In this document: piece after piece, positions 4,018 to 27,983 of the stretch
Layout of the letters: every line of letters starts with the position of its first letter
Numbering within the stretch: the stretch's first letter is position 1
From: a virus
IMG/VR virus record: IMGVR_UViG_3300030090_007212
Location: 74,503 to 138,502 of that record
Strand: one strand, 5' to 3'
Length of the DNA: 64,000 nucleotides
Made by a program: the position numbers and the translations under genes
The notes under the pieces: model-generated
The model's input: the letters and a program-made list of their open reading frames with translations, nothing else
Databases searched by the model: none
Told to the model about the DNA's origin: nothing

Positions 4018-4603
4018 ATCTATAAATGTAAGGTAGTATTTTATTATTTTTGTTAGTTTTTGTTATTATACTCTTACATTTATTAAATACTTGATTTCTG
4101 ATTAAAAGGCTATCAGTTAATTGGTTGATTTTATTAATTATTTTTTGTTTTTTAATACCTATTAATTCCATAATATTTAAATCAACACCAAAAACGATGT
4201 TTTCATTATAAATATATAACATATTATTGTCACTTATATATGAAATTGATTTATTAAAACTATTAATTTTATTAATAATTTTTTTAATTTTACTCTTTTT
4301 ATCATGAATAGGATCAATATATACATAATTTAAATGATTCCCTATATTACTATAACATAGATTTTTAAATATTATAATATCTTCCTCATATTCAACTTTT
4401 CTTTCTTTTGGTGTGAATGTCCAACATAAATTTTCTTTTATTTGTTTATGTAAAATAGACGCTTCGGATATAGTATCCTTAGTAATATCCCACCCTATTA
4501 TTATTGTGGGTAAATTAGGTATAATATCTTCTATAGTAGTAGATACTTTAAATTCTTTTTCGAATTCTATGGGTTGGTGTGTAACTATATTTCCAATAAT
4601 CAT
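3971..4603 (-). CDS. Hypothetical phage protein
   Basis: 210-aa ORF with TATATTTG promoter element just upstream. Confidence 0.75.
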   Translation of the reverse strand: MIIGNIVTHQPIEFEKEFKVSTTIEDIIPNLPTIIIGWDITKDTISEASILHKQIKENLCWTFTPKERKVEYEEDIIIFKNLCYSNIGNHLNYVYIDPIHDKKSKIKKIINKINSFNKSISYISDNNMLYIYNENIVFGVDLNIMELIGIKKQKIINKINQLTDSLLIRNQVFNKCKSIITKTNKNNKILPYIYRYGECSEDNNPSFVCP

Positions 4604-7600: not shown

Positions 7601-9853
7601 TGCAGTGGTAACAATATTTTGGAGAGGATCTAATCTGGTTTGAGGATTTGTTTTTAATATATTATTTTCAATATAATCTCTTATTACTTTTGAGAATATT
7701 GTTAAATTTGCATTTATACCATCTAAAGACCCATATACTGTTAAAGGACTTTTATTATTTATATCTTTATTAAAATTAGAATAATTTTTTATAATATCAA
7801 TTCTTTTAATGAATTGACTCACCATTTCTTCATTAATAGTGTTGGTATCATTTAATATGTTTAACCTTAAAAATGGATTAACATCATAATCTAAAGGATT
7901 CACTGGAAACCAATTGTCAGTATCATTACCCGCAAACCCTGCTGTTGCTTTTGTTATTTCATTTAATTCACTTCTTTTTTTAGTTAAATTTTTAAATACA
8001 TCCTCCACAAATTTAACTTCAGGGAATAAAGAAATATTTGATTTTATTTGTTCATTTTCACCTAAATAAATTTCTATATTACCTTTGTCATCACTAGATT
8101 GATAAACAGTGGGCCACATAAACTCGTTAAATTTTACAGGTAAATCACTATTTTTTTCACCGAACTCTTTAACAATTAAAGCTTTCCTTTGGTCTTGGGT
8201 ATTACTAGAATTAACATTATTTTTTAATTCTTTTAAACATAATAACATTGCATCTGTATTATTACATATAATTCTAAATATATTACGTATAGAGGGGTTC
8301 ATCTTTAAATTACCAATTAAGGTTTCATTTAATTTTTTTTGTACCTCTTCTTGTTGTTTTTTTATATTTTCCCTTAAATTAATTAATGTATTTTCTACTT
8401 GTGATCTAATTTCTCTCAAATCAAAAACAAAAACATTATTAGATAAACTCATGTCTTCTACTCTAGTGTTTTTATTTTGTGGGGTAGAAAAGTATAATGT
8501 CGGTTGGAATTCTGAGTTTATTAATGGATCTTGAGCAGGTAAAGGACCTTCATTTAAAATACCGCCTGGGGTATTAAATTGAGTGAAAACATTTTCTATA
8601 GTAATAGATTTATTACCAACCGACCATAAAAATTTTTCATACGATTCTCCTATTTTAAAAGAATCTAATAAAGATTGTTGGCTTTCTTTTGAAATTCCTC
8701 CTTTGTTTCCTTTAACTTGTGATAATTCTTTATTTTTATTTATGAGAAAATCATTATAATCTTTAGTAATATCTTCTAAAGTTGTGAAATATTCTTTTAT
8801 ATCTGGTAATCTTATTGAGTTAATTAATAAAAAATCTCTTATAGAAAGATAATCGGATCCTAATACTAATGAATTATCAGTAATTTTACTAGTTTCTACC
8901 TGCGTAGAATTATTAGTTTGTTTTAAATATTCTGTTGTAGACTCATTATTAATATCTTTAGTTAAAGGTACCCCTATAAATGTTTGTAACCTTTTTAGTT
9001 TCCCAAAAAGTTCATTTAAAGTTTTTAATACTTCAAATTCATCGTTTTTATCTTTAATGTCCTCAAATTCTAATTGTAATTTAGATATTCTTACGAAAAA
9101 ATCATCTATTTGTCGAATATCCGTTTCAATAGGTGGTAAGTCCGGATCAATAGCTTCTTGATTATCATAAATTTGATTTAATTTATTAACCCCTATTTCC
9201 GTATTTACCGCACCAATTATATTACCTAATACCATATCTGCTAAAAAAGCCTGCTGAAACCCTACAAAGTTAGCAGTTATATTAAAATCTCCTGTTCCAC
9301 CATCAAAATCTGATGTCCAATTAGTCATATGAAGACAATAATCTACTGTTTTACCAAAATATCCTTTTACAGATAATTTAAAAATAGGATAAGGCATTTT
9401 AAAAAATATACTATATGGTGATTTTCTATTATCATTATCAATAACATCAAATAATGATGCACCTCTCACATCCGTAAAAGTTATATCTACCTGTGGTACT
9501 AAACTAGCATCATATTTTATATCAATACTTTTTATACCAAACCCTTCTAATATCCCTCTACTATTTGCATCTACAGTACCCCCTATTTTAGTATAATTGG
9601 TAGTTGCATAAGTTTTTTGTGGTGAAGGATCAATCTCCCCTTTAGCGTTATAATTTACTTCAGTCGCAATAAAATTAATTTCACCTATAGTTTCTACCAA
9701 ATCACTCCTATTTCTTTCATATGCGGAAAATTTAACATATATAAACATATCTTCAGGTGGAATCATATCCATTCCCGGTGGATTAGGGTCAACTAAAAAT
9801 ATATTAGCTGCCACACGTTCAACATTAGATGTATTTGATTGGTTAGTAGGCAT
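4643..9853 (-). CDS. Large baseplate hub / tail-tip protein with degenerate C-terminal GH19 lysozyme-like domain
   Basis: 1736 aa. Hub-like motifs (GFGIKSIDI, FTDVRG, GAYLITNVNHNITP). C-terminal GDSFRYRERGYFYINGKEQY and ALRAAIYVW resemble GH19. Position downstream of tape measure. Confidence 0.7.
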   Translation of the reverse strand: MPTNQSNTSNVERVAANIFLVDPNPPGMDMIPPEDMFIYVKFSAYERNRSDLVETIGEINFIATEVNYNAKGEIDPSPQKTYATTNYTKIGGTVDANSRGILEGFGIKSIDIKYDASLVPQVDITFTDVRGASLFDVIDNDNRKSPYSIFFKMPYPIFKLSVKGYFGKTVDYCLHMTNWTSDFDGGTGDFNITANFVGFQQAFLADMVLGNIIGAVNTEIGVNKLNQIYDNQEAIDPDLPPIETDIRQIDDFFVRISKLQLEFEDIKDKNDEFEVLKTLNELFGKLKRLQTFIGVPLTKDINNESTTEYLKQTNNSTQVETSKITDNSLVLGSDYLSIRDFLLINSIRLPDIKEYFTTLEDITKDYNDFLINKNKELSQVKGNKGGISKESQQSLLDSFKIGESYEKFLWSVGNKSITIENVFTQFNTPGGILNEGPLPAQDPLINSEFQPTLYFSTPQNKNTRVEDMSLSNNVFVFDLREIRSQVENTLINLRENIKKQQEEVQKKLNETLIGNLKMNPSIRNIFRIICNNTDAMLLCLKELKNNVNSSNTQDQRKALIVKEFGEKNSDLPVKFNEFMWPTVYQSSDDKGNIEIYLGENEQIKSNISLFPEVKFVEDVFKNLTKKRSELNEITKATAGFAGNDTDNWFPVNPLDYDVNPFLRLNILNDTNTINEEMVSQFIKRIDIIKNYSNFNKDINNKSPLTVYGSLDGINANLTIFSKVIRDYIENNILKTNPQTRLDPLQNIVTTATDTNMVKKINNGFEVVNKPIVESQYIIVDNSVSTIVNNSKSLWGDITDNKDYKKIVAKEVNSKTYKTYYYNNNLTNNLFNHIWLDKVNNKLIATDNKNENYNIRSIKVIDGGNITTEDITPTTNVSSTSPLPNTTITNSNPLPNTTISNEPSEAEGKYINILNPTLPPNNQTKYETLLTDNDFYNNISDDKGRALLLLSTLPFNKFKKVLEVLKQENQTARVIKIPSYYLYFIGGLLSRYNNDFLSNWNVLSSPKNQYINKIGVLSGDKTPNIENELLNLPFKTQQELIFKFENWVGLSSGAKGFLNFENLVKTYKSSDLTISEDQQISARNQIINEMNKLSSVVLTAPTSFFDPNTPNNNITINDINDYLTGFKSAFEETVNEKGSDNKTEQVNTNSNSTENSIKLQIYNYFKNVNNKWVADDNKQQQVCGANNELFDYFKFIDRGWADIGDKAVINLDSILGLSNDLNTSIYFFIAKILRDSNFLFQILPTFINYKDNVEVAEIFKPITNVNENNRSRGPAYVCIYAGGNSEVLDIGENTTYSYPNDGFSFSNKNIPSDFNSDSSLVAFKVGFGAQNQTIFKNVSLSQQEHRETAEYFKALSDLIDKKGGTQRSYQGSDLLRLFKTRSYTCKVDAMGCMNIQPLMYFDLQNVPFFNGAYLITNVNHNITPNSMSTNFSGVRQSKFITSYVDKPTAFLNIDLTADLQLPPIEFSNNLTTDPLYSIGVDEEVQKLNFEYNQLTEEKLTQELGVTTPVNERVSATELGNVMIQNGIISNSQATMFLTNLLVNSDNLSKTEKQSADDIPSLENFIVKFDDSSPFSGQTKYYSATQMDSFVVNGLEINKVYDVYNDKQKLDQDGVIVGGNDQIGDSFRYRERGYFYINGKEQYKKFDKGDQKLTPFAVSTQPNIALRAAIYVWNDIKDANKKSCNDYAKEDGNSTTFERTSAMSCPTKKDKDKFYEKFESVLSNFSYEGKPLISYDRA

Positions 9854-16409: not shown

Positions 16410-16562
16410 TTAATCTTCTTTAGGTGTTAAATAATTTATATAATATCTACGGATATGGGTAGACATCATCATAGTGTCAGAATACGAAAATCCTTTATGA
16501 ACTAAAAATAATTGTTCATTTAATAAATTTTGGTAGTAATGTTTAGATTTCAGGATACCAAA
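16410..16562 (-). CDS. gp51-like / chaperone C-terminal extension, probably reached by frameshift from the upstream gene
   Basis: YYQNLLNEQLFLVHKGFSYSDTMMMSTHIRRYYINYL resembles short gp51-like proteins. It overlaps the end of the 256-aa gene in the +1 frame. Confidence 0.55.
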   Translation of the reverse strand, partial: FGILKSKHYYQNLLNEQLFLVHKGFSYSDTMMMSTHIRRYYINYLTPKED

Positions 16563-17313
16563 AATTCCTTCCCAATCTAAGAAAGCAACCAACGGACCCT
16601 CCCCCCTGAGTCCGAGCATTAGTTTCTAAATTTATTCCCGGTTCTATTTCCCCAATATATTTATTAAACTTTCGTATTTCTATAAGGTTTAATGTTTTCA
16701 ATATATGAGATATTTTCATTTTATCTCTTTCCCCATCTATCTCCATAATAGAACGTTCTAATCTTAATGTAGTATTAGTAGAAATACCCCCATTCTTTTC
16801 TTTTTGTTTTTGATCGATATTTTCTATTTCTTTTTCGTCTTTATGAGTTAGTAATCTAAACTTAATTTTTTTATTAGTTTTAGTAAAAATATAATCAAAT
16901 TCCCCTTTTTCATCAGGTTTAACATTTAAATTTTTCATTTTAAGTTCACTTAAATCTATAATTCCTTCTACTAAATTTCTATCTTCATCAAAAACAGTTT
17001 GGTAGTATTCATTACCTAATCCTGTAGTCCTTAAAAATAATAAAATTGCCATTCTATCCCCACTTAATAGTTCATCATGATCAAAACCCAATTCTTTTAC
17101 TTTCCTTTCTATTAAAACATCTAATGCTTTACCATTAGATAAAAGATTAGGGGAAGTTAAAATATTTTCATCATAAGCAGTCATATATTCTACCTTAACT
17201 GACGATTTTTTATTCTTATATAAAAGACCTTGAGAAGGTAAATCTATAACATCAAAAGGGACTTTATATTCTTCCGGAACATAATTCGGATCAACAAACA
17301 TTTTCTTTTCCAT
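16543..17313 (-). CDS. Baseplate hub assembly / tail assembly chaperone (T4 gp26-like)
   Basis: IDLPSQG...YMTAYDENILT...LLSGDR...FRLLTHKDE and C-terminal NFWYP, a gp26-like pattern; upstream of the tape measure. Confidence 0.75.
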   Translation of the reverse strand: MEKKMFVDPNYVPEEYKVPFDVIDLPSQGLLYKNKKSSVKVEYMTAYDENILTSPNLLSNGKALDVLIERKVKELGFDHDELLSGDRMAILLFLRTTGLGNEYYQTVFDEDRNLVEGIIDLSELKMKNLNVKPDEKGEFDYIFTKTNKKIKFRLLTHKDEKEIENIDQKQKEKNGGISTNTTLRLERSIMEIDGERDKMKISHILKTLNLIEIRKFNKYIGEIEPGINLETNARTQGGGSVGCFLRLGRNFWYPEI

Positions 17314-17358: not shown

Positions 17359-18951
17359 TTACCAATTTCTAGTATTATCTATTACCTCAATGTTAACCTC
17401 TTCTACTTTTTGATTTTTGATACATTCTGCCTTTGCGTTTTCGATTGCACTTTTCCAATTTTCCCCCTGCTCTCCAGACAGACTCATCATACCATCAAAA
17501 ACCTTTTCAGAATCTCTTTTATAACCAGTAATTTGTTCGTCACTGAGACCGGGCGTATTAATTATAATCTGTTGAATTTCTGCTGTCTCTTCCTCAATTA
17601 CCCCCATACTCATTGCTGATAGTATTTGAGAATCAGTTTTATCATTAATATTTTTGCAGTTAATTATGGGATGTTGACCACTAGCAATCTTCTCAAAATT
17701 ACTTATTGTTTTCTTAATTACGTTAGATTTTGCAGTCGCTAAATTATACTTATTATCTGTTGCCCTTTCTAAAGCATCATTAAGACCTTTCATTGCTTCT
17801 TCGGCTACCTCCTTAGCATCGGGCATAAATTTGGCGAAAATATTTGCCCATTCATCAAACACTGCTCTGACAGGATTTTGCCCTTTTCTGGCTGCATCAA
17901 TTCCGATGTATGCTGAATACAAACCTGCCGGAATTACTACAATTCTCATAATATAAAAGGGAAGTAGACCTGCATAATCACTATAAGGATATTTTAAATA
18001 AGCTTTAAAAGGCCCTGTAATAGCACTTTTTGTACCACTCCAGATTTTTTGCAGTCTGGTTTTTTCTTCGATATCTGGCATATCATCTATTTTTTCTTTT
18101 ATTTTATCAACATTTACACCTGTACCCTCTATAGGTCCTTTAGGATTATTCTGTATATTGATGTTCTCAACATGTGCACCCTCTTGAATAATAAAAACAT
18201 TACTCCCCTCACTCTGCACTTTATTGGCTTCATTAGCAATAGCTGTCATATTTTCCTCTGTGGCTACTACAGTTTTACCATCTAATTCATCTAAAGATTT
18301 ACCTTTGGGGTCAACTACCTCATCTACTTTAGGTTTAGTAGGTTCAACCTCCCTCTTCTTAGGATCTACATTTTCAAATTCACCTTTTTCATTTTTCTTG
18401 TATTGATCAACTTTACCAGTTCCATCAGTTTTAGTTATTAATATTTCATCACCTACTTTTTCCACTTCTATTTTGGTAGGATTCATTTCTATTACTTTTG
18501 ACCCACCTAAAGCTTCACTGTATAATTCTACTACAGTTTCTCTCATTCCACCTTCGGTGGGTACATCTTTAAGGGCCGCTATAAAAGCATCTTTATCCAC
18601 ATTTTTTAACTGACCAGTATTTGCCATATAATCTAAACTTTTAATAAAACTATTTACCTTCACTAAATCTACAGCTGCCGGTACAAGTTGTTTCCAAACA
18701 TTAGGAAATTCATCAATATGTTTACTTAAATCGTCAAAAGTACCTATTTTAAAATTTAAATAATCAGTAAGAATTTTAGGATCAATAGTTTTTAGCCCAG
18801 CAGTAAATGCTCTCTTTAATGATTGAAATGGCCTTCTCTGTTCGTGTAACATAGAGGTATTTTTTACTAGATTACCATATAATCTCTCTTCTGAAAATAG
18901 GGATTTCATTCTTGAAATCTCTTCATTTAATGTTTTTATTTTATTTTTCAT
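17359..18951 (-). CDS. Putative virion-packaged protein with shared N-terminal domain and a hydrophobic segment
   Basis: 530 aa. Leader LNEEISRMKSLF...LHEQ, then about 135 aa paralogous to 23403..24719, then hydrophobic LLPFYIMRIVVIPAGLYSAYIGI. Confidence 0.7.
   Translation of the reverse strand: MKNKIKTLNEEISRMKSLFSEERLYGNLVKNTSMLHEQRRPFQSLKRAFTAGLKTIDPKILTDYLNFKIGTFDDLSKHIDEFPNVWKQLVPAAVDLVKVNSFIKSLDYMANTGQLKNVDKDAFIAALKDVPTEGGMRETVVELYSEALGGSKVIEMNPTKIEVEKVGDEILITKTDGTGKVDQYKKNEKGEFENVDPKKREVEPTKPKVDEVVDPKGKSLDELDGKTVVATEENMTAIANEANKVQSEGSNVFIIQEGAHVENINIQNNPKGPIEGTGVNVDKIKEKIDDMPDIEEKTRLQKIWSGTKSAITGPFKAYLKYPYSDYAGLLPFYIMRIVVIPAGLYSAYIGIDAARKGQNPVRAVFDEWANIFAKFMPDAKEVAEEAMKGLNDALERATDNKYNLATAKSNVIKKTISNFEKIASGQHPIINCKNINDKTDSQILSAMSMGVIEEETAEIQQIIINTPGLSDEQITGYKRDSEKVFDGMMSLSGEQGENWKSAIENAKAECIKNQKVEEVNIEVIDNTRNW
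18440..18843. repeat. Approximately 400-bp duplication, copy A
   Basis: Aligns by eye to 24250-24653 at an offset of about 5810 bp, with long identical runs such as cccagcagtaaatgctctctttaatgattg. Confidence 0.9.
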
Positions 18952-19757: not shown

Positions 19758-21935
19758 TTAAGGTACTTTATATTTTTCCAAAAAATTATCTATACCCTCT
19801 TCACCTGGTGGATTAGGAGCATTCATTACTTCTACATCAATATTGTCAGGAATATAAACTACTCTTTTACCATCTTCTTTTTCATCAGTGGATTTTTCAT
19901 CACTTTTATGTTTATAAATCGTATCTTTTTTATAATCAGATTTTAGCTCATATCTTTTTTTATAGGTGTCTGTTTGAAATTCTGCAGGTACTTTATTAAA
20001 ATCATTCATTGTAGGTTGTTGTTTATTTTGTATGAACTTTTTATCATAAGGTCTCCACCCACTTTTCCACGCTTTAGTTAATAAAATATTATCATCACGA
20101 GACTTTTCCATAGTAAAATTAGGGTCAGTATTTAAAATAGAACCAAAAATTTGTTTAGTTTGGTTCCAATCGTAACCCTCAACCTCAACGCGATTTTTAA
20201 TAGAAGGATGTAATTTATATTTACCTTCTCTATATATTAAACCCACCCATTCTTGAACTTCAGGTAATTGTAAAATTTCTTGTACCCCCACAAATGCACC
20301 TATTTGAATTAAAAATTCCTTATATAATGGTCTCTTTAGATATTTATTGAGTGTAACTAATACATCACCATTGTTTGCCTTTAATGCGTCTTGCCAATCC
20401 TTATTTTTAAATATTTCTTGTAAAGAAAATGAATGTTTTTTCCTAACTGTGTTTTCTGCTTTTTCTAAATATTTAGTATAAGTTTTTAATAAATCCGGTT
20501 CAATCTTATTAAAAGTTTTTATTAAATCATGAGCCATTAAAATTTCACTATCTGTCATTTTAAATTTATTGGCTGCATCAGCATAAATTTTTGTCAATTT
20601 ATTTTTATCTTTTATACTTTTTAGGTTTTTAACCGCCCCAAATTCTTTCTTTGTTTTATCTACTACTTCCCCCATATACTTATAAATCTTAGGATTGGCA
20701 CTTGCTTTTCTAATATTATTCATACTTTTCATACCACCACCAGCCATACCCCCACCTAATGTTAATATACCAGCAAATATTGCAGCAGTGCGTTCTGCAC
20801 CTGTTTCTGCATTAAAAGCTTCTACACCATAAGCAGTGGCATTAATTGCATCTAACCCAAAACTTATTGCGACCCCATAGACAGGGATTGCTAATGCCGC
20901 AATAGATAATAAATCTAATACACAATGATAATCTTCCGTACATTTACCTAAATAATCTACCACTCCCTCAAAAAATCCTGGGGCATTTTCTTTTTTATAG
21001 TCTTTAAATTGTTTTGTCCACCCTAATAAATCTTGTTTACTAAAATTTCCATGTTGGGTTAAATATCCATCGTTATGACTTGTTTCGTTTATGCACCCAC
21101 ACATATGTCCTGCCTGTGTATTATAAACAAATACTCCCTTTTCTGTTGGATTCCCACAAAATGTCCAAGGACTTTCACTTATATCTTGATAATATACGTG
21201 ATACCAACCCCTGGATGTATATCTATTATCTTTAGGTTTCCCATAATATACTTTGTTTTGGGGTCCGGGGGAACCAATTTTTGCTTGTTGTTGACGTGCT
21301 CGTTTTGCCCCCTCATTATCACTACCATAATACTGTATTATCCATTGTTTATCAGAAGTTTTCGTACAATATTGAGATATAAGGTTTTTTTGATCTCTAA
21401 TAGTTCGATTCCAGTCTTGCGCCATTATATAATTCTTCCACAATTCCTGTTGATTCATATTATAATCAGATTGTGACAGTTGTTTATAATAGTTATTTTG
21501 TTTTATATACGTACTTAATCCGCCTGTTTCAGTATCTACCGGAATAGAGGGATTATAATCTGCGATTGGGAAGTCATCCACCTCATTATCGTAATTATAA
21601 GGATGATCTTCTAAAGATTGACCGGGAGGTATTAATTTCTCAAGAATTTCATCGGGTATTAAATTATGACCTGTTTTAGAATTTGGTGCACCCCATAATG
21701 CCCATTGTCCTTGTGCTCGTTTATATGCACCTTCTGGTGTTGAGTATGCCAATTGTTGGGTAAGACGATTAAATTCCTGTGCCTTATATCGGTCATATGA
21801 ATCCTTATCAAAACCAGATTGATTTTTTTTATAATTATCTACATTATGTGCACCATAAAATGTACCATCCTCAGCAGTATATTGTTCAGTTAAAAAAATA
21901 CGTTTATATTGATTTTCAGTAATACGAAGCTTCAT
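19758..21935 (-). CDS. Putative virion-packaged protein with pre-toxin (PT-TG-like) hydrophobic domain
   Basis: Start moved to ATG 21935 (MKLRITENQYKRIFLTEQ) because the longer start overlaps a terminator and the promoter motif. Contains HCVLDLLSIAALAIPVYG...LDAINATAYGVEA. Confidence 0.7.
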   Translation of the reverse strand: MKLRITENQYKRIFLTEQYTAEDGTFYGAHNVDNYKKNQSGFDKDSYDRYKAQEFNRLTQQLAYSTPEGAYKRAQGQWALWGAPNSKTGHNLIPDEILEKLIPPGQSLEDHPYNYDNEVDDFPIADYNPSIPVDTETGGLSTYIKQNNYYKQLSQSDYNMNQQELWKNYIMAQDWNRTIRDQKNLISQYCTKTSDKQWIIQYYGSDNEGAKRARQQQAKIGSPGPQNKVYYGKPKDNRYTSRGWYHVYYQDISESPWTFCGNPTEKGVFVYNTQAGHMCGCINETSHNDGYLTQHGNFSKQDLLGWTKQFKDYKKENAPGFFEGVVDYLGKCTEDYHCVLDLLSIAALAIPVYGVAISFGLDAINATAYGVEAFNAETGAERTAAIFAGILTLGGGMAGGGMKSMNNIRKASANPKIYKYMGEVVDKTKKEFGAVKNLKSIKDKNKLTKIYADAANKFKMTDSEILMAHDLIKTFNKIEPDLLKTYTKYLEKAENTVRKKHSFSLQEIFKNKDWQDALKANNGDVLVTLNKYLKRPLYKEFLIQIGAFVGVQEILQLPEVQEWVGLIYREGKYKLHPSIKNRVEVEGYDWNQTKQIFGSILNTDPNFTMEKSRDDNILLTKAWKSGWRPYDKKFIQNKQQPTMNDFNKVPAEFQTDTYKKRYELKSDYKKDTIYKHKSDEKSTDEKEDGKRVVYIPDNIDVEVMNAPNPPGEEGIDNFLEKYKVP

Positions 21936-21973
21936 AATTAAATTTATATATAAATAAATATCTATAGGCATAG

Positions 21974-21996
21974 AAAAAGCCACTACAAAGTGGCTT
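21974..21996 (-). terminator. Intrinsic terminator after the tail tube gene
   Basis: AAGCCACT-4 nt-AGTGGCTT hairpin followed by T run on the minus strand. Confidence 0.75.
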
Positions 21997-22028: not shown

Positions 22029-22517
22029 TTAGAATACGTTGATTGCTCTATCGAACCTCAATGTACATGTGATATCCGCCAAGTCACTAGAAGAATAATC
22101 CAACCCACCGAAATCTGCGTCGTTAAGTTGAGTTCCTTGAAGAATCCATTTTTGTACTACAACACCTGTAGGATCTAACATTTCTAATTCAACGTCTTTT
22201 TTGTATCCTGCTGCGTAACCTTGTCTACCTGTTACTGATTCAGAGTGAAGTCTTACCCACTCCATTAATGCTTGTGTTGCCGAAGGACCGATTGGATCTC
22301 TAAAGGTAACTGAAATAGTTTCCCATCTAAATCTACCAATAACAAAAGTCTCCGTATTTAAGAAAGGTATTGATACCTCATCACTTGTATATTTTGGTCG
22401 ACTTGCTGTAGAAATCCACCATTCTTGAATACCTAATTCATCAGGAAATCTAAGAATCCATCTATTCTTTCTTAATGGTTCGTAAGGAACCGGCATTCTC
22501 ATTAATAAATCTGCCAT
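22029..22517 (-). CDS. Tail tube protein (T4 gp19-like)
   Basis: YEPLRKNRW, WETISVTFRDPI, YKKDVELEMLDPTGVVVQKWILQG, LRFD; 162 aa, near the sheath gene. Confidence 0.88.
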   Translation of the reverse strand: MADLLMRMPVPYEPLRKNRWILRFPDELGIQEWWISTASRPKYTSDEVSIPFLNTETFVIGRFRWETISVTFRDPIGPSATQALMEWVRLHSESVTGRQGYAAGYKKDVELEMLDPTGVVVQKWILQGTQLNDADFGGLDYSSSDLADITCTLRFDRAINVF

Positions 22518-22580: not shown

Positions 22581-23399
22581 TTACTTTTTAACGATAATTC
22601 TTTTTTTCTTAGGGTTTTCAGGATCAGAAGTATCATATACTAAAAATCTAACATCAGGATATAAACCTTTTAAGGTTTCTTGTATATATCTTTCTGCAGT
22701 TTCCACATTACCTAAATCATCATCACTAAATCCTATACTAATACCCGTATATTCAGGATCGTCTTTTATTTTATCTACTGCCTTTACTACTCTATCTACA
22801 AAACTCTTTAACGCTAATGTTTTTGCAATTTCAGGTTCGGTAGAAGTAGACTCTATCCCAAACTTTTCCATAAATTCATCAGAAGATACAGGATAATAAT
22901 CTTGTAAATTAAGATATTGATCAATTGATACCCCATGAAGGTTGGCAATCATTTGTCCTCTCTCCTCTTCTGTTAAAATGGTATCTATTATTATCTTTAT
23001 TGCGTCTTTTATTGCCTTTGGAGGATTTCCCCTTGCCGTTATAATAGAGAAATCACTTCCATAGGATAATGCTTCCTTAAATTTATCAAAACTAGGGCCA
23101 AACGCTTGTTTTCTTAATGCTTCATTAGTATCTTTTATAAAAGAATCGTAAGATCTAAAATCTTTAAAAGATTTCATAGGGTCATTATCTACATATCTAT
23201 ATAATTTTCCCATTTCTTTACGTACTTCCCTAAATTCTTCTGTAGATACGGAAATAGGTACCCACCCTTTACCCACTCTTTTCTCCAAATATATCTGAGT
23301 AGGCATAAATAAAATATTATCATCCCAATCAAAAGAATATGCTCTTTTTTGGAATTCTAAAAGAAGTTTTTGTTGATATTTTGTTAATCTCAGTTTCAT
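22581..23399 (-). CDS. HAD-superfamily phosphatase
   Basis: Motif I FDWDDNI, motif II IITARG, Lys in AKT, motif IV FSDDD; short leader ending LLE. Confidence 0.78.
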   Translation of the reverse strand: MKLRLTKYQQKLLLEFQKRAYSFDWDDNILFMPTQIYLEKRVGKGWVPISVSTEEFREVRKEMGKLYRYVDNDPMKSFKDFRSYDSFIKDTNEALRKQAFGPSFDKFKEALSYGSDFSIITARGNPPKAIKDAIKIIIDTILTEEERGQMIANLHGVSIDQYLNLQDYYPVSSDEFMEKFGIESTSTEPEIAKTLALKSFVDRVVKAVDKIKDDPEYTGISIGFSDDDLGNVETAERYIQETLKGLYPDVRFLVYDTSDPENPKKKRIIVKK

Positions 23400-23402
23400 T
23401 TT

Positions 23403-24719
23403 TTAATGGTTATTTTTCAAATATTCTCTAAAATTATAGATACCATAATTCTCAAAACCTCCTCTGGAAATCATATTATAATTATTACTTTTAATCGCAT
23501 CATTAATAAAAATATCATATTCCTCTACACTTTTAGCGTTTACTATTTTACTCCAATCAATTTCACTTGTATCCCCAAATTTAGTAGAAAGGTAATTTAT
23601 AGGTATAGTTTTAGTTACTTTATTATTACTAAATAAATCCTCAACATCGTTTGGTTTATATGATCCACCAGAATTTTTATTATAATATTGATTATAATGT
23701 TCCCAATCTCTGAATCCACCGTTAGGGGGTGCACCAATTAACTCGTTTCTATAATGAATTTGAGGTGTAATCATTTTATCTCCCATTATATTACCACCTT
23801 TATTATTATATCCTTGAATTGCAGACTTAATATCTGATAACATCGCACCCTGTTGGTTTTTATCAATTACCGACTTAGGTATATAAATGGTGGCCCCTTG
23901 TTTACCATGTTGAGGTGTGCCGGGTTTCATCTTAACATGATTGACTTGTTCTAACCCACCTACTTTTCCATGTGCACCATATTTTTTAGATACCGGAGTT
24001 AACCTCTCTATTAAAAAGGCAGAATCTTCTAAAGTAGAACCAAATATATGAAATTTCCACCCACTATGGTTAGGCCACTCCACTTTAGATCCAAATTCTA
24101 TCCAACCTCTTTCATTTGGATTACCATATTTATAAAGTATGTTAAGAGAATCTTCAATAACACTATTATCAAGTTCTTTTGTTATTGGTAAAAAATTAGT
24201 ATTTTTATGTTTTTTATATTGTTTAACCTCATTACCTTTAATTGTGGTAATAATTACTTCATCACCTACCTTTTCCACTTCTATTTTGTAAGGTTTTATT
24301 TCCCTTACTTTTCCTAGTCGCGATTCATCAAATAGTTCTACTACAGTTTCTCTCATTCCACCTTCTGTTGGAATATCCACCAAAGCCTTAATAAAGTCTT
24401 CAATTTCCACATTTTTTAACTTACCCCTCTTTGCCATATAATCTAAACTTTTAATGAAACTATTTACCTTAACTAAATCTACACTTGCCGGTATAAGTTG
24501 CTTCCAAACCCCTGCGAATTCATCAATATGTTTACTTAAATCATTAAAATTAGTGATTTTAAAATTTAAATAATTAGTAAGAATTTTAGGGTCAATAGTT
24601 TTTAACCCAGCAGTAAATGCTCTCTTTAATGATTGTAATGGTCTTCTTTGTTCCGTTAGAATTCCACCACCATTTTCACATAAAAAATTAAATTGACTTT
24701 CACTAATTATTATCTTCAT
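23403..24719 (-). CDS. Leader + shared domain + phosphothreonine-lyase-like (OspF/SpvC, LanKC/LanL lyase) domain protein
   Basis: GWKFHIFG...HGKVG...GKQGATIYIP...GD...IHYRNE in the order seen in the lyase fold. N-terminal part paralogous to 17359..18951. Confidence 0.68.
   Translation of the reverse strand: MKIIISESQFNFLCENGGGILTEQRRPLQSLKRAFTAGLKTIDPKILTNYLNFKITNFNDLSKHIDEFAGVWKQLIPASVDLVKVNSFIKSLDYMAKRGKLKNVEIEDFIKALVDIPTEGGMRETVVELFDESRLGKVREIKPYKIEVEKVGDEVIITTIKGNEVKQYKKHKNTNFLPITKELDNSVIEDSLNILYKYGNPNERGWIEFGSKVEWPNHSGWKFHIFGSTLEDSAFLIERLTPVSKKYGAHGKVGGLEQVNHVKMKPGTPQHGKQGATIYIPKSVIDKNQQGAMLSDIKSAIQGYNNKGGNIMGDKMITPQIHYRNELIGAPPNGGFRDWEHYNQYYNKNSGGSYKPNDVEDLFSNNKVTKTIPINYLSTKFGDTSEIDWSKIVNAKSVEEYDIFINDAIKSNNYNMISRGGFENYGIYNFREYLKNNH
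24250..24653. repeat. Approximately 400-bp duplication, copy B
   Basis: Aligns to 18440-18843. Confidence 0.9.
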
Positions 24720-24742
24720 ATATAATAAATATTATTGGGTAT

Positions 24743-24766
24743 AAAAAAACCCACATAAGTGGGTTT
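24743..24766 (-). terminator. Intrinsic terminator
   Basis: AAACCCAC-4 nt-GTGGGTTT hairpin with T run on the minus strand. Confidence 0.75.
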
Positions 24767-24789: not shown

Positions 24790-25113
24790 TTAATAATTAG
24801 GTATTTTTTCATCCATAGGATATCTACCACTACTTGGCATACATTTTGCCCCACATTCTAATAATTTAGGTCCAATTATAAATGCATCTGTCATATCTAC
24901 ACCTTCTAATAATGCTGCAATATCACTCATAGAAGGAGCTTCCATTTCCATTAACATTGCCGCTATTTTCATTGCTTTTGCACTATATTTAGGCCCTAAT
25001 GCGTCTTCCACACAAGAAACACATACTGGAGATGGTTCAATACTTTGCTCTACCAATACTCTTTTAACGATTTTTTGTAAATCCGATTCTTTTAATTTAA
25101 TTACTTTTTTCAT
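24790..25113 (-). CDS. Small protein with N-terminal leader
   Basis: 107 aa; MKKVIKLKESDLQKIVKRVLVEQ followed by a four-Cys helical domain. Confidence 0.78.
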   Translation of the reverse strand: MKKVIKLKESDLQKIVKRVLVEQSIEPSPVCVSCVEDALGPKYSAKAMKIAAMLMEMEAPSMSDIAALLEGVDMTDAFIIGPKLLECGAKCMPSSGRYPMDEKIPNY

Positions 25114-25163: not shown

Positions 25164-27983
25164 TTAAATATCATCAAAAGATGCACCAGTATTAGTAATA
25201 TTGAATTCTATGCTGATGTATTCTAATGTTCTAGTTGGTTTAATAAAGATTCTACCATTCAACTCATTTCTATCAATTGATTCTGGTGTATCATCTAATA
25301 CCACTCTAAAGTCAGTTAAACCTCTTTCTTTACGGATATTATCCAAAATTGGGTTAACTAATGAAAGGAATTGATTTCTTACAACCTCATCATTTTGTTC
25401 AAATAACAATCTGATAGAAACTGCAGATATAAGTTTTCTTGCTTGAAGTAAAAGTCTTCTAACATTAATTCTATTAAGTGCTGTTTCTTTTTGTTGTAAT
25501 GTTTTATTACCCCAAATTACTACTCCCACATCTGAGAATGTTGCCATTGGGTTAATCATACCTTCATAAAGAGTATCTCTTTGGTCTAAAGTCAATTTTA
25601 ATCTCGCTTTAATTGCGTTTGTTGTACCTCTATTTAAACCTGCTGCTGCAAACCAAGGAAATGCAACGTTATCTGTTAATGCAATGTTTCTAACAACCTC
25701 TAATGTTGGTGGTAACCATACATATTGGTTATTTTCTGTATCATTCATCTGTAACCACGGCCAGTAAGTGGCAGAATAGTTACTGTCGATTCCTGCATCT
25801 GCGATTAAATCAACCGCTTCTTCTGGATCAATTGCTTGTCCATCACTATCAGTATCCGGTGTAGTTAGGATATAAAGTGAATCCGCTCTATCAACTTCTA
25901 CAACATCAATTGCATTTTCAATCAATCCTGTTTGATCTCTTACATCCAACCCTGGAGTTGCGAATACATTTATATTAACCGCTTCAGGATTATTGAATGT
26001 GTATAAACCATCTAAGAATGCGTAATAATCAGAAGTGATTCCTTCATCTCCTTCACTTGTTACAAATGTTTGGAAAGTTCCTGCCAATAATCCTGCCGCA
26101 CCATTAGTTCCAGCTTTTGTATAAGAATCTCCGTTAGTTCTTTCGGTTCTATATTCATCCCATCCATCATAACCACCAAATGGTGCAAATGTGAATTTTC
26201 TTGCCGCTAATTTTTCATAAGGACCACTAGTTACTGAAGCGTTACTCGTAAATGCCGATACACCTACTTGAAGTGCTGGGAAGTAACTATCAGCACCTGC
26301 CGATATTTCTGCTCCTTCTGCATTTACATCCATATGGAAACCATCTGTTCTTCCAGTATAAACACCATCATTAACTGCGTTTCTACCTTTATAATCGAAG
26401 TAATCTTGATCTACCCCTATAGAACTATTTAAACCTAAGTAAGTTTTTCTAAGTCTTGCAGTAGTTAATTGTCCGTATGCCGTCTTATATTCAATTTGTG
26501 GTGGTAAAGAAGTTCTTGTACCAATGTATTCCCTATTTAATACTCCCTCAAATCCTGCAGGGAAAGCATTGTGTGGGAAATCATCTGCCAATTCTACCAT
26601 CACATATTCACTACGTAATGGATATTCACCATCCGTAGTACCAATTTTTCTACCAATAAATCCATTATCTGTTGGATCCATTGTAATTTTTGAAAATTTC
26701 TCTACAGTTTGAATATTAGAATCTGTATCATTGAATTTTCTTACCAATAAATCAAATGTTCTTTCATCAGGTTTAATATTAACAATAGAGAATTTAATGT
26801 CTTCATTCGCTGCGTTACCATCAGATATTGTAACGAATCTAAATAATCTTTGTAATACATTACCTCGTAGTTCTGATAATACATAAGGAGATGATGCAGA
26901 TTTCCATTGTTCTTCATAATCATCTAAATTATTAGTGTCAGTAGATAATATTTCATTGAAAGTAATATCTAAACCTCTTACTTTACCTGCACTATTTAAA
27001 TCATCTAATGTATTATAGTATAATTCCTCTACCCATAATTCAGTTTCTTTATCCTGTGTCTTACTACCGAATAAACCTGCAATATAGTTAGTTTTTGTTT
27101 TATCTAAAGATGTATCATAACTAAATGTGTTACCCGCTGCCGTTGTACCTGTAATTGTAAACGATGCGAATGGATTAGTAACGATATCATCAGTATTTGT
27201 CATTTCAGTTGCAGTAACCGTATAATCTAAGATTTGGTCACCACCATAGTCACCTCTAGATCTTAATGTTGCAACAACACTACCATCAATACTTGAATCA
27301 CAAGTTGCACTATATGTAACCACCGTACCTGATGTTACACCAGTAATTCCACCTGCAACACTTGATCCGATGGAAATAACCTCCATATCAAATGTTCTAC
27401 CTGTAAAATCACACCCTACTTTAATATACGCTGGATCATCTATTGAGAAATCATCACCTACAGTTGCATTACCAATATTAGTAAATGTAGAAGATATCTC
27501 CCCATCATCATATAAGTCTTGTAAACCACTACTAGCGTCAAATGTCATAGTAACTGGTGTACCACCTGTGGTTGCACTAAACGTTAATAACGGATCATAA
27601 GAAGTAGTATCTGTTATACTTACTGTATCCGCATCAGGATTAGAGTCTAATGTAATACTCCACGCACTACCTGCCTTATAACCTGAATACCCCAATACTC
27701 TACTTACATATAATTGGTTAGTTTGTGTAAGAAATGATTTTGCAATGTAATTTAATTCATATTTGTGAAAACCAGAACCTTTAAATTTCTCAGAATTCAA
27801 ACCACCAAAATAATTCATGAATTCATTATAGTTTGAAATAAAGACTGGTTCAAATGCTGGCCCTTTCGGAGTTTCACCTACTAATCCTAATGTAGTGACT
27901 CCTACTTGTCTTGTTACAAATGTTAAATCCTTTTCTGAGGTGAATACCCCCGGACTAACAAAAATTCTATCTGTCGATGCCAT
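25164..27983 (-). CDS. Contractile tail sheath protein (T4 gp18-like)
   Basis: FVSPGVFTSEKD, GETPKGPAFEP, PWFAAAGLNRG, WGNKTLQ, RINVRRLL, IKPTRTLEYI. Confidence 0.95.
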   Translation of the reverse strand: MASTDRIFVSPGVFTSEKDLTFVTRQVGVTTLGLVGETPKGPAFEPVFISNYNEFMNYFGGLNSEKFKGSGFHKYELNYIAKSFLTQTNQLYVSRVLGYSGYKAGSAWSITLDSNPDADTVSITDTTSYDPLLTFSATTGGTPVTMTFDASSGLQDLYDDGEISSTFTNIGNATVGDDFSIDDPAYIKVGCDFTGRTFDMEVISIGSSVAGGITGVTSGTVVTYSATCDSSIDGSVVATLRSRGDYGGDQILDYTVTATEMTNTDDIVTNPFASFTITGTTAAGNTFSYDTSLDKTKTNYIAGLFGSKTQDKETELWVEELYYNTLDDLNSAGKVRGLDITFNEILSTDTNNLDDYEEQWKSASSPYVLSELRGNVLQRLFRFVTISDGNAANEDIKFSIVNIKPDERTFDLLVRKFNDTDSNIQTVEKFSKITMDPTDNGFIGRKIGTTDGEYPLRSEYVMVELADDFPHNAFPAGFEGVLNREYIGTRTSLPPQIEYKTAYGQLTTARLRKTYLGLNSSIGVDQDYFDYKGRNAVNDGVYTGRTDGFHMDVNAEGAEISAGADSYFPALQVGVSAFTSNASVTSGPYEKLAARKFTFAPFGGYDGWDEYRTERTNGDSYTKAGTNGAAGLLAGTFQTFVTSEGDEGITSDYYAFLDGLYTFNNPEAVNINVFATPGLDVRDQTGLIENAIDVVEVDRADSLYILTTPDTDSDGQAIDPEEAVDLIADAGIDSNYSATYWPWLQMNDTENNQYVWLPPTLEVVRNIALTDNVAFPWFAAAGLNRGTTNAIKARLKLTLDQRDTLYEGMINPMATFSDVGVVIWGNKTLQQKETALNRINVRRLLLQARKLISAVSIRLLFEQNDEVVRNQFLSLVNPILDNIRKERGLTDFRVVLDDTPESIDRNELNGRIFIKPTRTLEYISIEFNITNTGASFDDI

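Follow-up and report, generated by a model that had tools for sequence, protein, structure and literature searches.

A predicted phospho-Ser/Thr lyase domain on a leader-bearing protein of an uncultured AT-rich phage

The locus and the architecture of the encoded protein

The open reading frame (ORF) at positions 23403..24719, on the minus strand, of a 64,000-nucleotide stretch of viral DNA (hereafter the window; the last 64 kb of the 138.5-kb IMG/VR record IMGVR_UViG_3300030090_007212) encodes a protein of 438 amino acids (aa), for which an earlier note, made from the sequence alone, had proposed a phosphothreonine lyase-like domain and packaging in the capsid. The record is labelled a provirus and estimated to be 42% complete; the window is AT-rich, with a G+C content of 26-37% per 2-kb bin, and is coding mostly on the minus strand. 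The analysis described here indicates that the middle domain of the protein is almost certainly a lyase-fold homolog, which is combined in one polypeptide with an N-terminal leader and two further modules:

23403..24719, minus strand: whole ORF, 438 aa, comprising leader, N module, lyase domain and C-terminal helical domain (from the translation and the structural model)
24651..24719, minus strand: N-terminal leader, residues 1-23, a putative targeting/cleavage peptide with ISE-7, LCE-15 and LTE-23
24186..24650, minus strand: N module, residues 24-178, a helical bundle plus beta meander (from similarity to the paralog at 17359..18951)
23619..24119, minus strand: predicted phospho-Ser/Thr lyase-fold domain, residues 201-367 (from homology, fold and the residue map)
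23409..23597, minus strand: C-terminal helical domain of about 63 residues, residues 375-437 (from separate matches among relatives)

The motifs on which the earlier note relied are all present in the translation, at the expected positions and in the expected order: GWKFHIFG (residues 220-227, positions 24039-24062) is followed by HGKVGG (containing K252), GKQGATIYIP (K273 and Y279), GD (D314) and IHYRNE (with Y323-E326 at positions 23742-23753), and the span originally assigned to the domain, 23620-24110, agrees with the envelope of residues 201-367. Matching relatives delineate three independent modules, at residues ~2-190, ~200-365 and ~375-437, and in the structural model of the full-length protein (predicted local distance difference test score, pLDDT, 78.9) the domain boundaries coincide with low-confidence linkers at residues 180-186 and 366-371; the leader region is modelled with low confidence and the C-terminal helical domain with a pLDDT of 88-90. 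The N module is common to the paralog and many proteins of 600-770 aa, and the C-terminal domain is found elsewhere alone, in tandem (it is duplicated in the relative P0007) and on other proteins. A search of the ESM Atlas with residues 25-195 and 366-438 yielded no feature matches; the structural neighbors of these two modules in the Atlas have template modelling scores of 0.27-0.60 and unrelated annotations (the Atlas model itself is poor, with a pLDDT of 0.51), those of the C-terminal domain being short-stretch and non-specific only.

The middle module is related to the lyase domains of LanKC lanthipeptide synthetases

Used as a single sequence, the 438-aa protein has no match in Pfam (E<=1), PHROGs (E<=0.1) or the Protein Data Bank (PDB; E<=10). 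Its relationships become apparent through its family, which includes 39 relatives in a clustered protein collection; 155 cluster representatives match the protein at E<=0.001, 28 of them at E<=1e-30. In an alignment of 25 sequences, the middle module is the conserved one, with invariant positions that include G220, W221, K222, F223, H224, K252, G272, K273, Y279, G313, D314, Y323 and R324. A profile of 26 members (the module from the window and 25 relatives, mostly short and some partial) was compared with the PDB and matched the lyase domains of 10 distinct LanKC-type sequences with a best E-value of 1.8e-10; the ThurKC structures 8sao, 8sap and 8sam were retrieved with E-values between 1.8e-10 and 3.1e-10, and the sole non-LanKC row in this search was PilX, with E 0.15. 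The LanKC motifs quoted in the earlier note (GWKIHV.., GKFITIYP and YRYG) are seen in the alignment with ThurKC. The Pfam family RamC_N (PF25816) is matched by 15 of the 26 family members (best E-value 9.1e-07), and its 27-bit gathering cut-off is exceeded by distant metagenome relatives at loci L067, L074 and L061 (37.1, 28.5 and 27.7 bits, respectively); at the sequence level, membership of the window protein in RamC_N is transitive only, through these and other relatives. The profile reached none of the SpvC, OspF or VirA chains at E<=10, while LanKC proteins were found (the Pfam model of the effectors was not scored separately); judged by sequence comparison, the domain is closer to the LanKC lyase domains than to type III effectors.

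The AlphaFold2 model of residues 198-368 (pLDDT 91.8, predicted template modelling score 0.88) has the compact alpha/beta fold of the lyases. All Foldseek matches of this model in the PDB that were listed down to an E-value of 6.5e-3 are LanKC lyase domains, SpvC/VirA, OspF, LxmKY and the effector 4rsw/4rsx; the weaker rows are ribosomal proteins with low probability. An unrelated fold, which would have spoken against the original assignment, was not found. Thus, the lyase assignment is backed by the LanKC profile matches, the RamC_N matches and the modelled fold, and the domain appears to be a stand-alone relative of the RamC_N lyase domain that shares the fold of SpvC and OspF.

Two settings are known for phospho-Ser/Thr lyases, namely, lanthipeptide synthetases and those type III effectors that put eukaryotic MAP kinases permanently out of action. 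Unlike the LanKC enzymes (ThurKC 8SAO/8SAM, CuvL, SalKC and PneKC), the phage protein has neither a fused kinase or LanC cyclase nor one detected nearby, and its lyase domain is instead preceded by a leader and an unrelated N module and followed by a small C-terminal domain. With SpvC, OspF and VirA, it has the fold in common but no sequence-level match and no identified counterpart of R220; unlike these effectors, it would be delivered by a phage particle and would act on bacterial targets. The identity to LxmY, the separate lyase of the class V lexapeptide dehydratase LxmKY (9DK1-3), and to the Pseudomonas effector fold 4rsw/4rsx is 8-13%; LxmY works in complex with the kinase LxmK, whereas no APH-type kinase was detected in the five related phage records discussed below.

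Conservation of the active site

The equivalences between the active-site residues of SpvC and ThurKC, as given in an extract of PMC10604976, are K104/K65, H106/H67, K136/K94, R148/K117, D201/D152, R213/R163 and R220/R191. The HMMER alignment of the profile to ThurKC (where the chain index equals the native number minus 3) maps six of these positions onto the phage protein: K222 corresponds to ThurKC K65 and SpvC K104, H224 to H67 and H106, K252 to K94 and K136, K273 to K117 and R148, D314 to D152 and D201, and R324 to R163 and R213. Of 140 distinct domain-covering family sequences, collected from the protein matches and the fetched loci, 132 retain the complete set of six, at identities down to ~30%, and the window protein does so as well. 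The counterparts of the phosphate-binding Lys and the acid His, in the G-x-K-x-H strand, are present (K222 is kept in 138 of the 140 sequences and H224 in 136); that of the catalytic-base Lys, K252, is kept in 139 and is the only invariant column of the 26-member alignment; K273, D314 and R324 are kept in 137, 132 and 138 sequences, respectively.

The retention of this six-residue pattern at ~30% identity argues for a working enzyme, and from these sequence data we consider catalytic activity of the domain to be quite probable. The seventh residue (SpvC R220/ThurKC R191) is the point that weighs against it: this position lies past the end of the HMMER alignment, and no conserved Arg follows R324 in the 140 relatives (the column of K355 contains K in 77 and N in 53 of them). 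A degenerate, non-catalytic module with a phospho-binding or structural role could account for the one unmapped reference residue out of seven and for the eight of the 140 relatives in which one or more of the six mapped positions are no longer conserved; given that the complete set persists in 132 relatives at such low identity and in the window protein itself, we regard this explanation as highly improbable.

Distribution: a known kind of enzyme in a new setting

Relatives of the protein were identified on 12 distinct IMG/VR contigs and at 50 metagenome loci. No match was obtained when the whole protein and two stand-alone relatives were compared (tblastn) with 50,697 GenBank phage records, and Foldseek comparison of the model with BFVD produced nothing at E<=0.001, the best match being a Tupanvirus orphan with an E-value of 0.015. 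The representative genomes of 185,579 prokaryote species yielded one locus only, with profile A3 (and none with profile A1). This locus, L015, encodes at 7968-8441 a 157-aa stand-alone form of the lyase domain with an SGWKIH motif, in a metagenome-assembled genome (MAG) of Pacearchaeota (DPANN); its neighbors, identified by eye, are apparently cellular (LysRS-like, RNase H-like and acylphosphatase-like), and near-identical copies of this form are present on three metagenome contigs (L034-L036). Other distant forms include a lyase domain inside a protein of 1868 aa (L074, 2440-8046, on a contig with 44% G+C) and N-terminal lyase domains in proteins of 441-618 aa (L061, 1617-3473, and L067, 2240-3565, on contigs with 56-58% G+C); all three score above the RamC_N threshold, and no kinase domain is present in any of them.

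No report of such a lyase encoded by a phage emerged from a literature search that covered titles and the beginnings of abstracts. The phage lyase domain is a known kind of enzyme in a new setting.

The same protein is also recorded on a 297-kb contig, and the trimming that gave the record its provirus label may have divided a phage genome of very large size and not removed a host flank.

No partner enzymes of lanthipeptide biosynthesis in the searched records

The viral records searched for partner enzymes are fragments, 17-64% complete by the figures of the estimating tool. Within this scope, the observation of the earlier note that no kinase or cyclase is located nearby holds. The Pkinase family was not detected in the 438-aa protein, its own record or five related viral records (the control was positive in 11-12 of 14 genomes); the LanC cyclase family (PF05147) was not detected in the five records, with a weak control (2 of 14 genomes, none over the cut-off); and the five records likewise gave no match to an APH-type kinase. 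There is also no kinase among the eight scanned neighbors of the bacterial-type or stand-alone relatives at L027, L061, L068 and L074, which comprise a GNAT acetyltransferase and weak DUF11/CARDB matches only. Because no kinase, LanC or APH was found in the searched records, the protein does not appear to be a lanthipeptide synthetase. A class III/IV synthetase (LanKC/LanL) was also considered in terms of the architecture and rejected: no kinase is fused to the lyase, and the C-terminus is a helical domain of 63 residues, not LanC. With no phage kinase or cyclase alongside, host kinases most likely produce the phospho-substrates of the enzyme.

The gene immediately upstream of the lyase gene is relevant in this context:

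24790..25113, minus strand: upstream neighbor, 107 aa, leader and small Cys-rich body; the same position is occupied in L001-L003

The 107-aa ORF carries a leader and has 4 Cys residues, and its syntenic relatives (L001, 8651-8995; L002, 1806-2117) have 5-6. The window copy is 40% identical to that of L001 over 70 residues and resembles those of L002 and L003 in the leader only; the two relatives that were compared with each other have similar bodies.

The lyase could, in principle, be one half of a dispersed lanthipeptide-like, protein-dehydrating system, in which the host or an undetected phage kinase would phosphorylate leader-bearing phage proteins, and the dehydroamino acids made by the lyase would react with Cys or Lys to form cross-links. 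Given that Pkinase, APH and LanC were not detected in the five or six records searched and that no kinase was found beside the bacterial-type relatives examined, that the proteins bearing leaders have unrelated bodies and reach 700-1000 aa, and that the 438-aa protein lacks the kinase lobe which, according to an extract of PMC10604976, forms the leader-binding groove of LanKC, such a system seems very unlikely. We would put at least as little weight on its extension to a protein-scale analogue of lanthipeptide biosynthesis that includes the leader family and the Cys-rich 107-aa neighbor. Under that scenario, host kinases would phosphorylate the leader-bearing proteins, the phage lyase would dehydrate them to dehydroalanine or dehydrobutyrine, and thioether or lysinoalanine cross-links, or reactive warheads, would form in particle or ejected proteins.

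The leader is N-terminal, widespread and exchangeable

The earlier note described the domain as fused to a leader, and the 438-aa protein indeed carries one of a strictly N-terminal, enriched class. The modular nature of the leader is best seen in comparison with a paralog encoded in the window:

17359..18951, minus strand: paralog, 530 aa, with another leader, the same N module and, instead of the lyase, a hydrophobic segment

The two proteins are 66% identical over 178 aligned positions, covering residues 1-176 of the lyase protein, and the similarity begins right after the leader, at an E|Q junction (EQRRP); the leader of the paralog is different and longer. The hydrophobic region of the paralog is probably membrane-inserting, and the architecture looks polymorphic and cassette-like.

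The occurrence of leaders was assessed with three degenerate patterns for the leader classes; matches within the first 22 residues were counted as N-terminal and those beyond residue 30 as internal. Of the 129 ORFs in the phage's own record, 7 have an N-terminal match, against 2 internal matches in 41,072 residues; the other low-GC loci contain 84 ORFs with an N-terminal leader among 530 distinct ones, against 7 internal matches in 105,552 residues, and six control loci have none in 78 ORFs. The strict pattern is found in 24 of 45 distinct lyase-domain ORFs (from the metagenome loci, L015 and L022); six more seem by eye to have a leader, and two are leader-bearing forms whose calls were truncated to an ATG, the remainder being stand-alone, high-GC or fragmentary. 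The N-terminal leader is real and widespread in these phages.

The gene family tagged in this manner is much larger than the cassette in the window: for example, arrays of small leader-first ORFs of 90-350 aa are located at 155-2629 and 11384-15746 of L005 (G002, a contig of 187 kb).

Genomic neighborhood and expression signals

The lyase gene lies among genes for tail proteins:

25164..27983: sheath (phrog_23, 1.9e-63)
22029..22517: tube (phrog_4542, 4.8e-23)
16543..17313: baseplate hub (weak match)
22581..23399, minus strand: downstream neighbor, 272 aa, leader-bearing and very conserved; starts 4 nucleotides after the stop of the lyase gene
24725..24732, minus strand: ATATTTAT, a promoter-like motif that ends 5 nucleotides before the start codon of the lyase gene
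24747..24766, minus strand: terminator-like hairpin between the 107-aa and lyase genes, with 8 pairs (4 of them G-C), a loop of 4 and a T-rich tail

The sheath protein has no more than distant relatives among T4-like phages, including those of Flavobacterium, Rhodothermus, Microcystis and Pelagibacter, with 27-37% identity along a part of the protein. Leader-bearing genes are inserted in two trios, one between sheath and tube (107 aa, the lyase and 272 aa) and the other between tube and hub (741, 213 and 530 aa); the order sheath, 107-aa gene, lyase, 272-aa gene, tube is also found in three related contigs (L001-L003). Flavobacterium phage immuto lacks such inserts, its genes for sheath, tube, hub and tape measure following one another directly.

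The motif ATATTTAT occurs in 37 copies in the window, compared with 24.0 +/- 4.6 expected from shuffled sequences, and 15 of the 19 minus-strand copies are within 70 nucleotides upstream of the start of a minus-strand ORF, including those of the sheath, tube, hub and lyase genes. That these four genes have the motif in common fits co-expression; the lyase gene is probably expressed together with the structural genes, and we infer that this expression is late.

Upstream of the non-structural ORF starts at 4603, 40964 and 63389 (minus strand), TATATTTG-type elements are found, with ATATTTAT preceding the structural genes. The TATATTTG-type elements resemble the Bacteroidota -7 promoter box, TAnnTTTG, and several signal peptides encoded in related loci end in ...SQ; together, these two features hint at a Bacteroidota host.

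Two of the neighboring leader-bearing genes deserve mention. The 272-aa gene is far more conserved than the lyase gene, with 727 homologs, 120 of which, as listed, show 54-97% identity, and inspection of its product by eye suggests motifs similar to those of HAD phosphatases (an invariant D24-W-D-D-N28, S-I-I-T-A-R at 118-123 and G-x-S-D-D-D at 223-228). This assignment is unsupported by Pfam or by a 13-sequence profile compared with the PDB (best E-value 0.16, GtgE); if the 272-aa protein were a phosphatase, two phosphate-removing enzymes would be encoded side by side. The 741-aa ORF (19758-21983, minus strand) has a leader, MKLRITENQY..., that starts from an internal Met at ~21935, and a Gly/Ala-rich hydrophobic stretch; it matches no family in Pfam or PHROGs, and its location between tube and hub would suit a tape-measure or ejection protein.

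A T4-type packaging scenario and its alternatives

The leader invites comparison with the internal proteins of phage T4. According to an extract of PMC3012670, these proteins, with their unrelated bodies, have only the capsid-targeting sequence in common and constitute a varied anti-defense cargo; an extract of PMC5694885 describes a prohead protease that cuts after Glu, removing the N-terminal propeptides of Alt and the internal proteins, with Alt cleavage sites at ITE-6 and LTE-619. As far as these extracts go, IPI-III and Alt are alike in that unrelated cargo bodies follow a short common N-terminal peptide with an (I/L)xE site and the genes are late, and Alt, with its cleavage site at ITE-6, is an enzyme that is injected and modifies the host; the candidate sites in the lyase protein are ISE-7 and LTE-23. 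The leaders described here differ from the T4 capsid-targeting sequences in being longer (~15-40 residues), in forming several classes and in their presence on far more genes, and the T4 internal proteins have no sequence relation to the lyase protein or to the leaders. The prohead protease family Peptidase_S77 is represented above the Pfam cut-off in two of the five related lyase-bearing records (E-values 1.5e-23 and 2.3e-23), in both cases within a head gene cluster of T4-like order, in which the terminase, portal, scaffold and capsid genes were assigned by position and size only.

The combination of a leader containing (I/L)xE sites with a T4-type protease in relatives makes packaging and cleavage after Glu a reasonable inference; carriage of this protein in the virion should be held tentatively, at slightly less than even chances. 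The protein would be a modular one, consisting of a leader of ~23 residues, an adaptor module of ~155 residues, the predicted phospholyase domain and the small helical C-terminal domain, made together with the structural proteins. The leader would act like a T4 capsid-targeting sequence, drawing the protein into the assembling particle, where a T4-type prohead protease would cleave it off after Glu; together with the DNA, the enzyme in its mature form would reach the next host. There, it would convert phospho-Ser and phospho-Thr of host phosphoproteins into dehydroalanine and dehydrobutyrine by beta-elimination, an irreversible loss of phosphate that would block re-phosphorylation.

Several observations weigh against this scenario, in addition to the seventh active-site residue. 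The window protein itself has, as mentioned, no Pfam match at E<=1, and its gene is located between the sheath and tube genes, outside any head module. Eight further viral loci (L004-L011) have the lyase gene amid leader-bearing ORFs, away from tail and other structural genes. The leader patterns were written from this genome, and the test loci were picked for a leader-bearing lyase gene; furthermore, ~16% of the ORFs in the related loci bear a leader, which is a lot for packaged cargo. No S77 protease or gp23-type capsid gene was detected in the phage's own 138.5-kb record, which is 42% complete and for which the controls were silent; because the record is fragmentary and the control genomes gave no signal, this negative result says little either way. 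Finally, leaderless stand-alone relatives exist, one of them among the cellular genes of the Pacearchaeota MAG, and therefore the domain is not inherently a virion effector.

Part of this evidence would equally suit an active enzyme that is not packaged but functions late in the producing cell only, for instance, by dephosphorylating phage structural proteins or by shutting down host signaling during assembly, with the leader serving in assembly-site targeting, oligomerization or translation. The late-type motif and the place among structural genes fit this possibility just as well, the presence of leaders on ~16% of ORFs in related loci is above what cargo alone would lead one to expect, and no protease was found in the phage's own (fragmentary, control-silent) record. 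Conversely, the N-terminal (I/L)xE leader, the modular E|Q junction and the T4-type proteases in relatives fit packaging better, and an enzyme made late would be most useful to the next infection if carried along; on balance, a purely intracellular role seems unlikely.

The position of the gene also brings up loading into the tail. Leader-dependent loading of payloads occurs in contractile injection systems, and by analogy, the protein might be cargo of the tube lumen or baseplate, with the leader as a tail-loading signal. This would account for the location between sheath and tube, for the six leader-bearing genes on both sides of the tube gene as far as the baseplate hub, and for the contrast with phage immuto, where the corresponding genes are contiguous. 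In L004-L011, however, the lyase genes are not beside tail genes, the (I/L)xE motifs match head-protease sites, and to our knowledge, no tail-loading system has been described in phages; we consider tail cargo to be improbable.

Implications

Taken as a whole, the proposition that the window encodes a phage phospholyase which is active and which, tagged by its leader, is carried or delivered as cargo appears to us about evenly balanced. Of the interpretation given in the earlier note, the lyase assignment stands, and the proposed delivery and target are plausible. In particular, action on host kinase signaling or on kinase-based defense (Stk2 and the KKP module being examples of the latter), that is, a virion-delivered phospholyase that would irreversibly disarm kinase-based immunity, is a doubtful, albeit attractive, possibility. 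Such an enzyme would be the mirror image of the strategy of phage T7, which reportedly employs a kinase.

If the proposed role is correct, these phages would provide a third setting for phospho-Ser/Thr lyases and would possess a novel type of weapon, one that erases protein phosphorylation in bacteria irreversibly and could thereby blunt kinase-based defenses and stress signaling. More generally, the leader-tagged protein family of uncultured low-GC phages may define a set of particle cargo.

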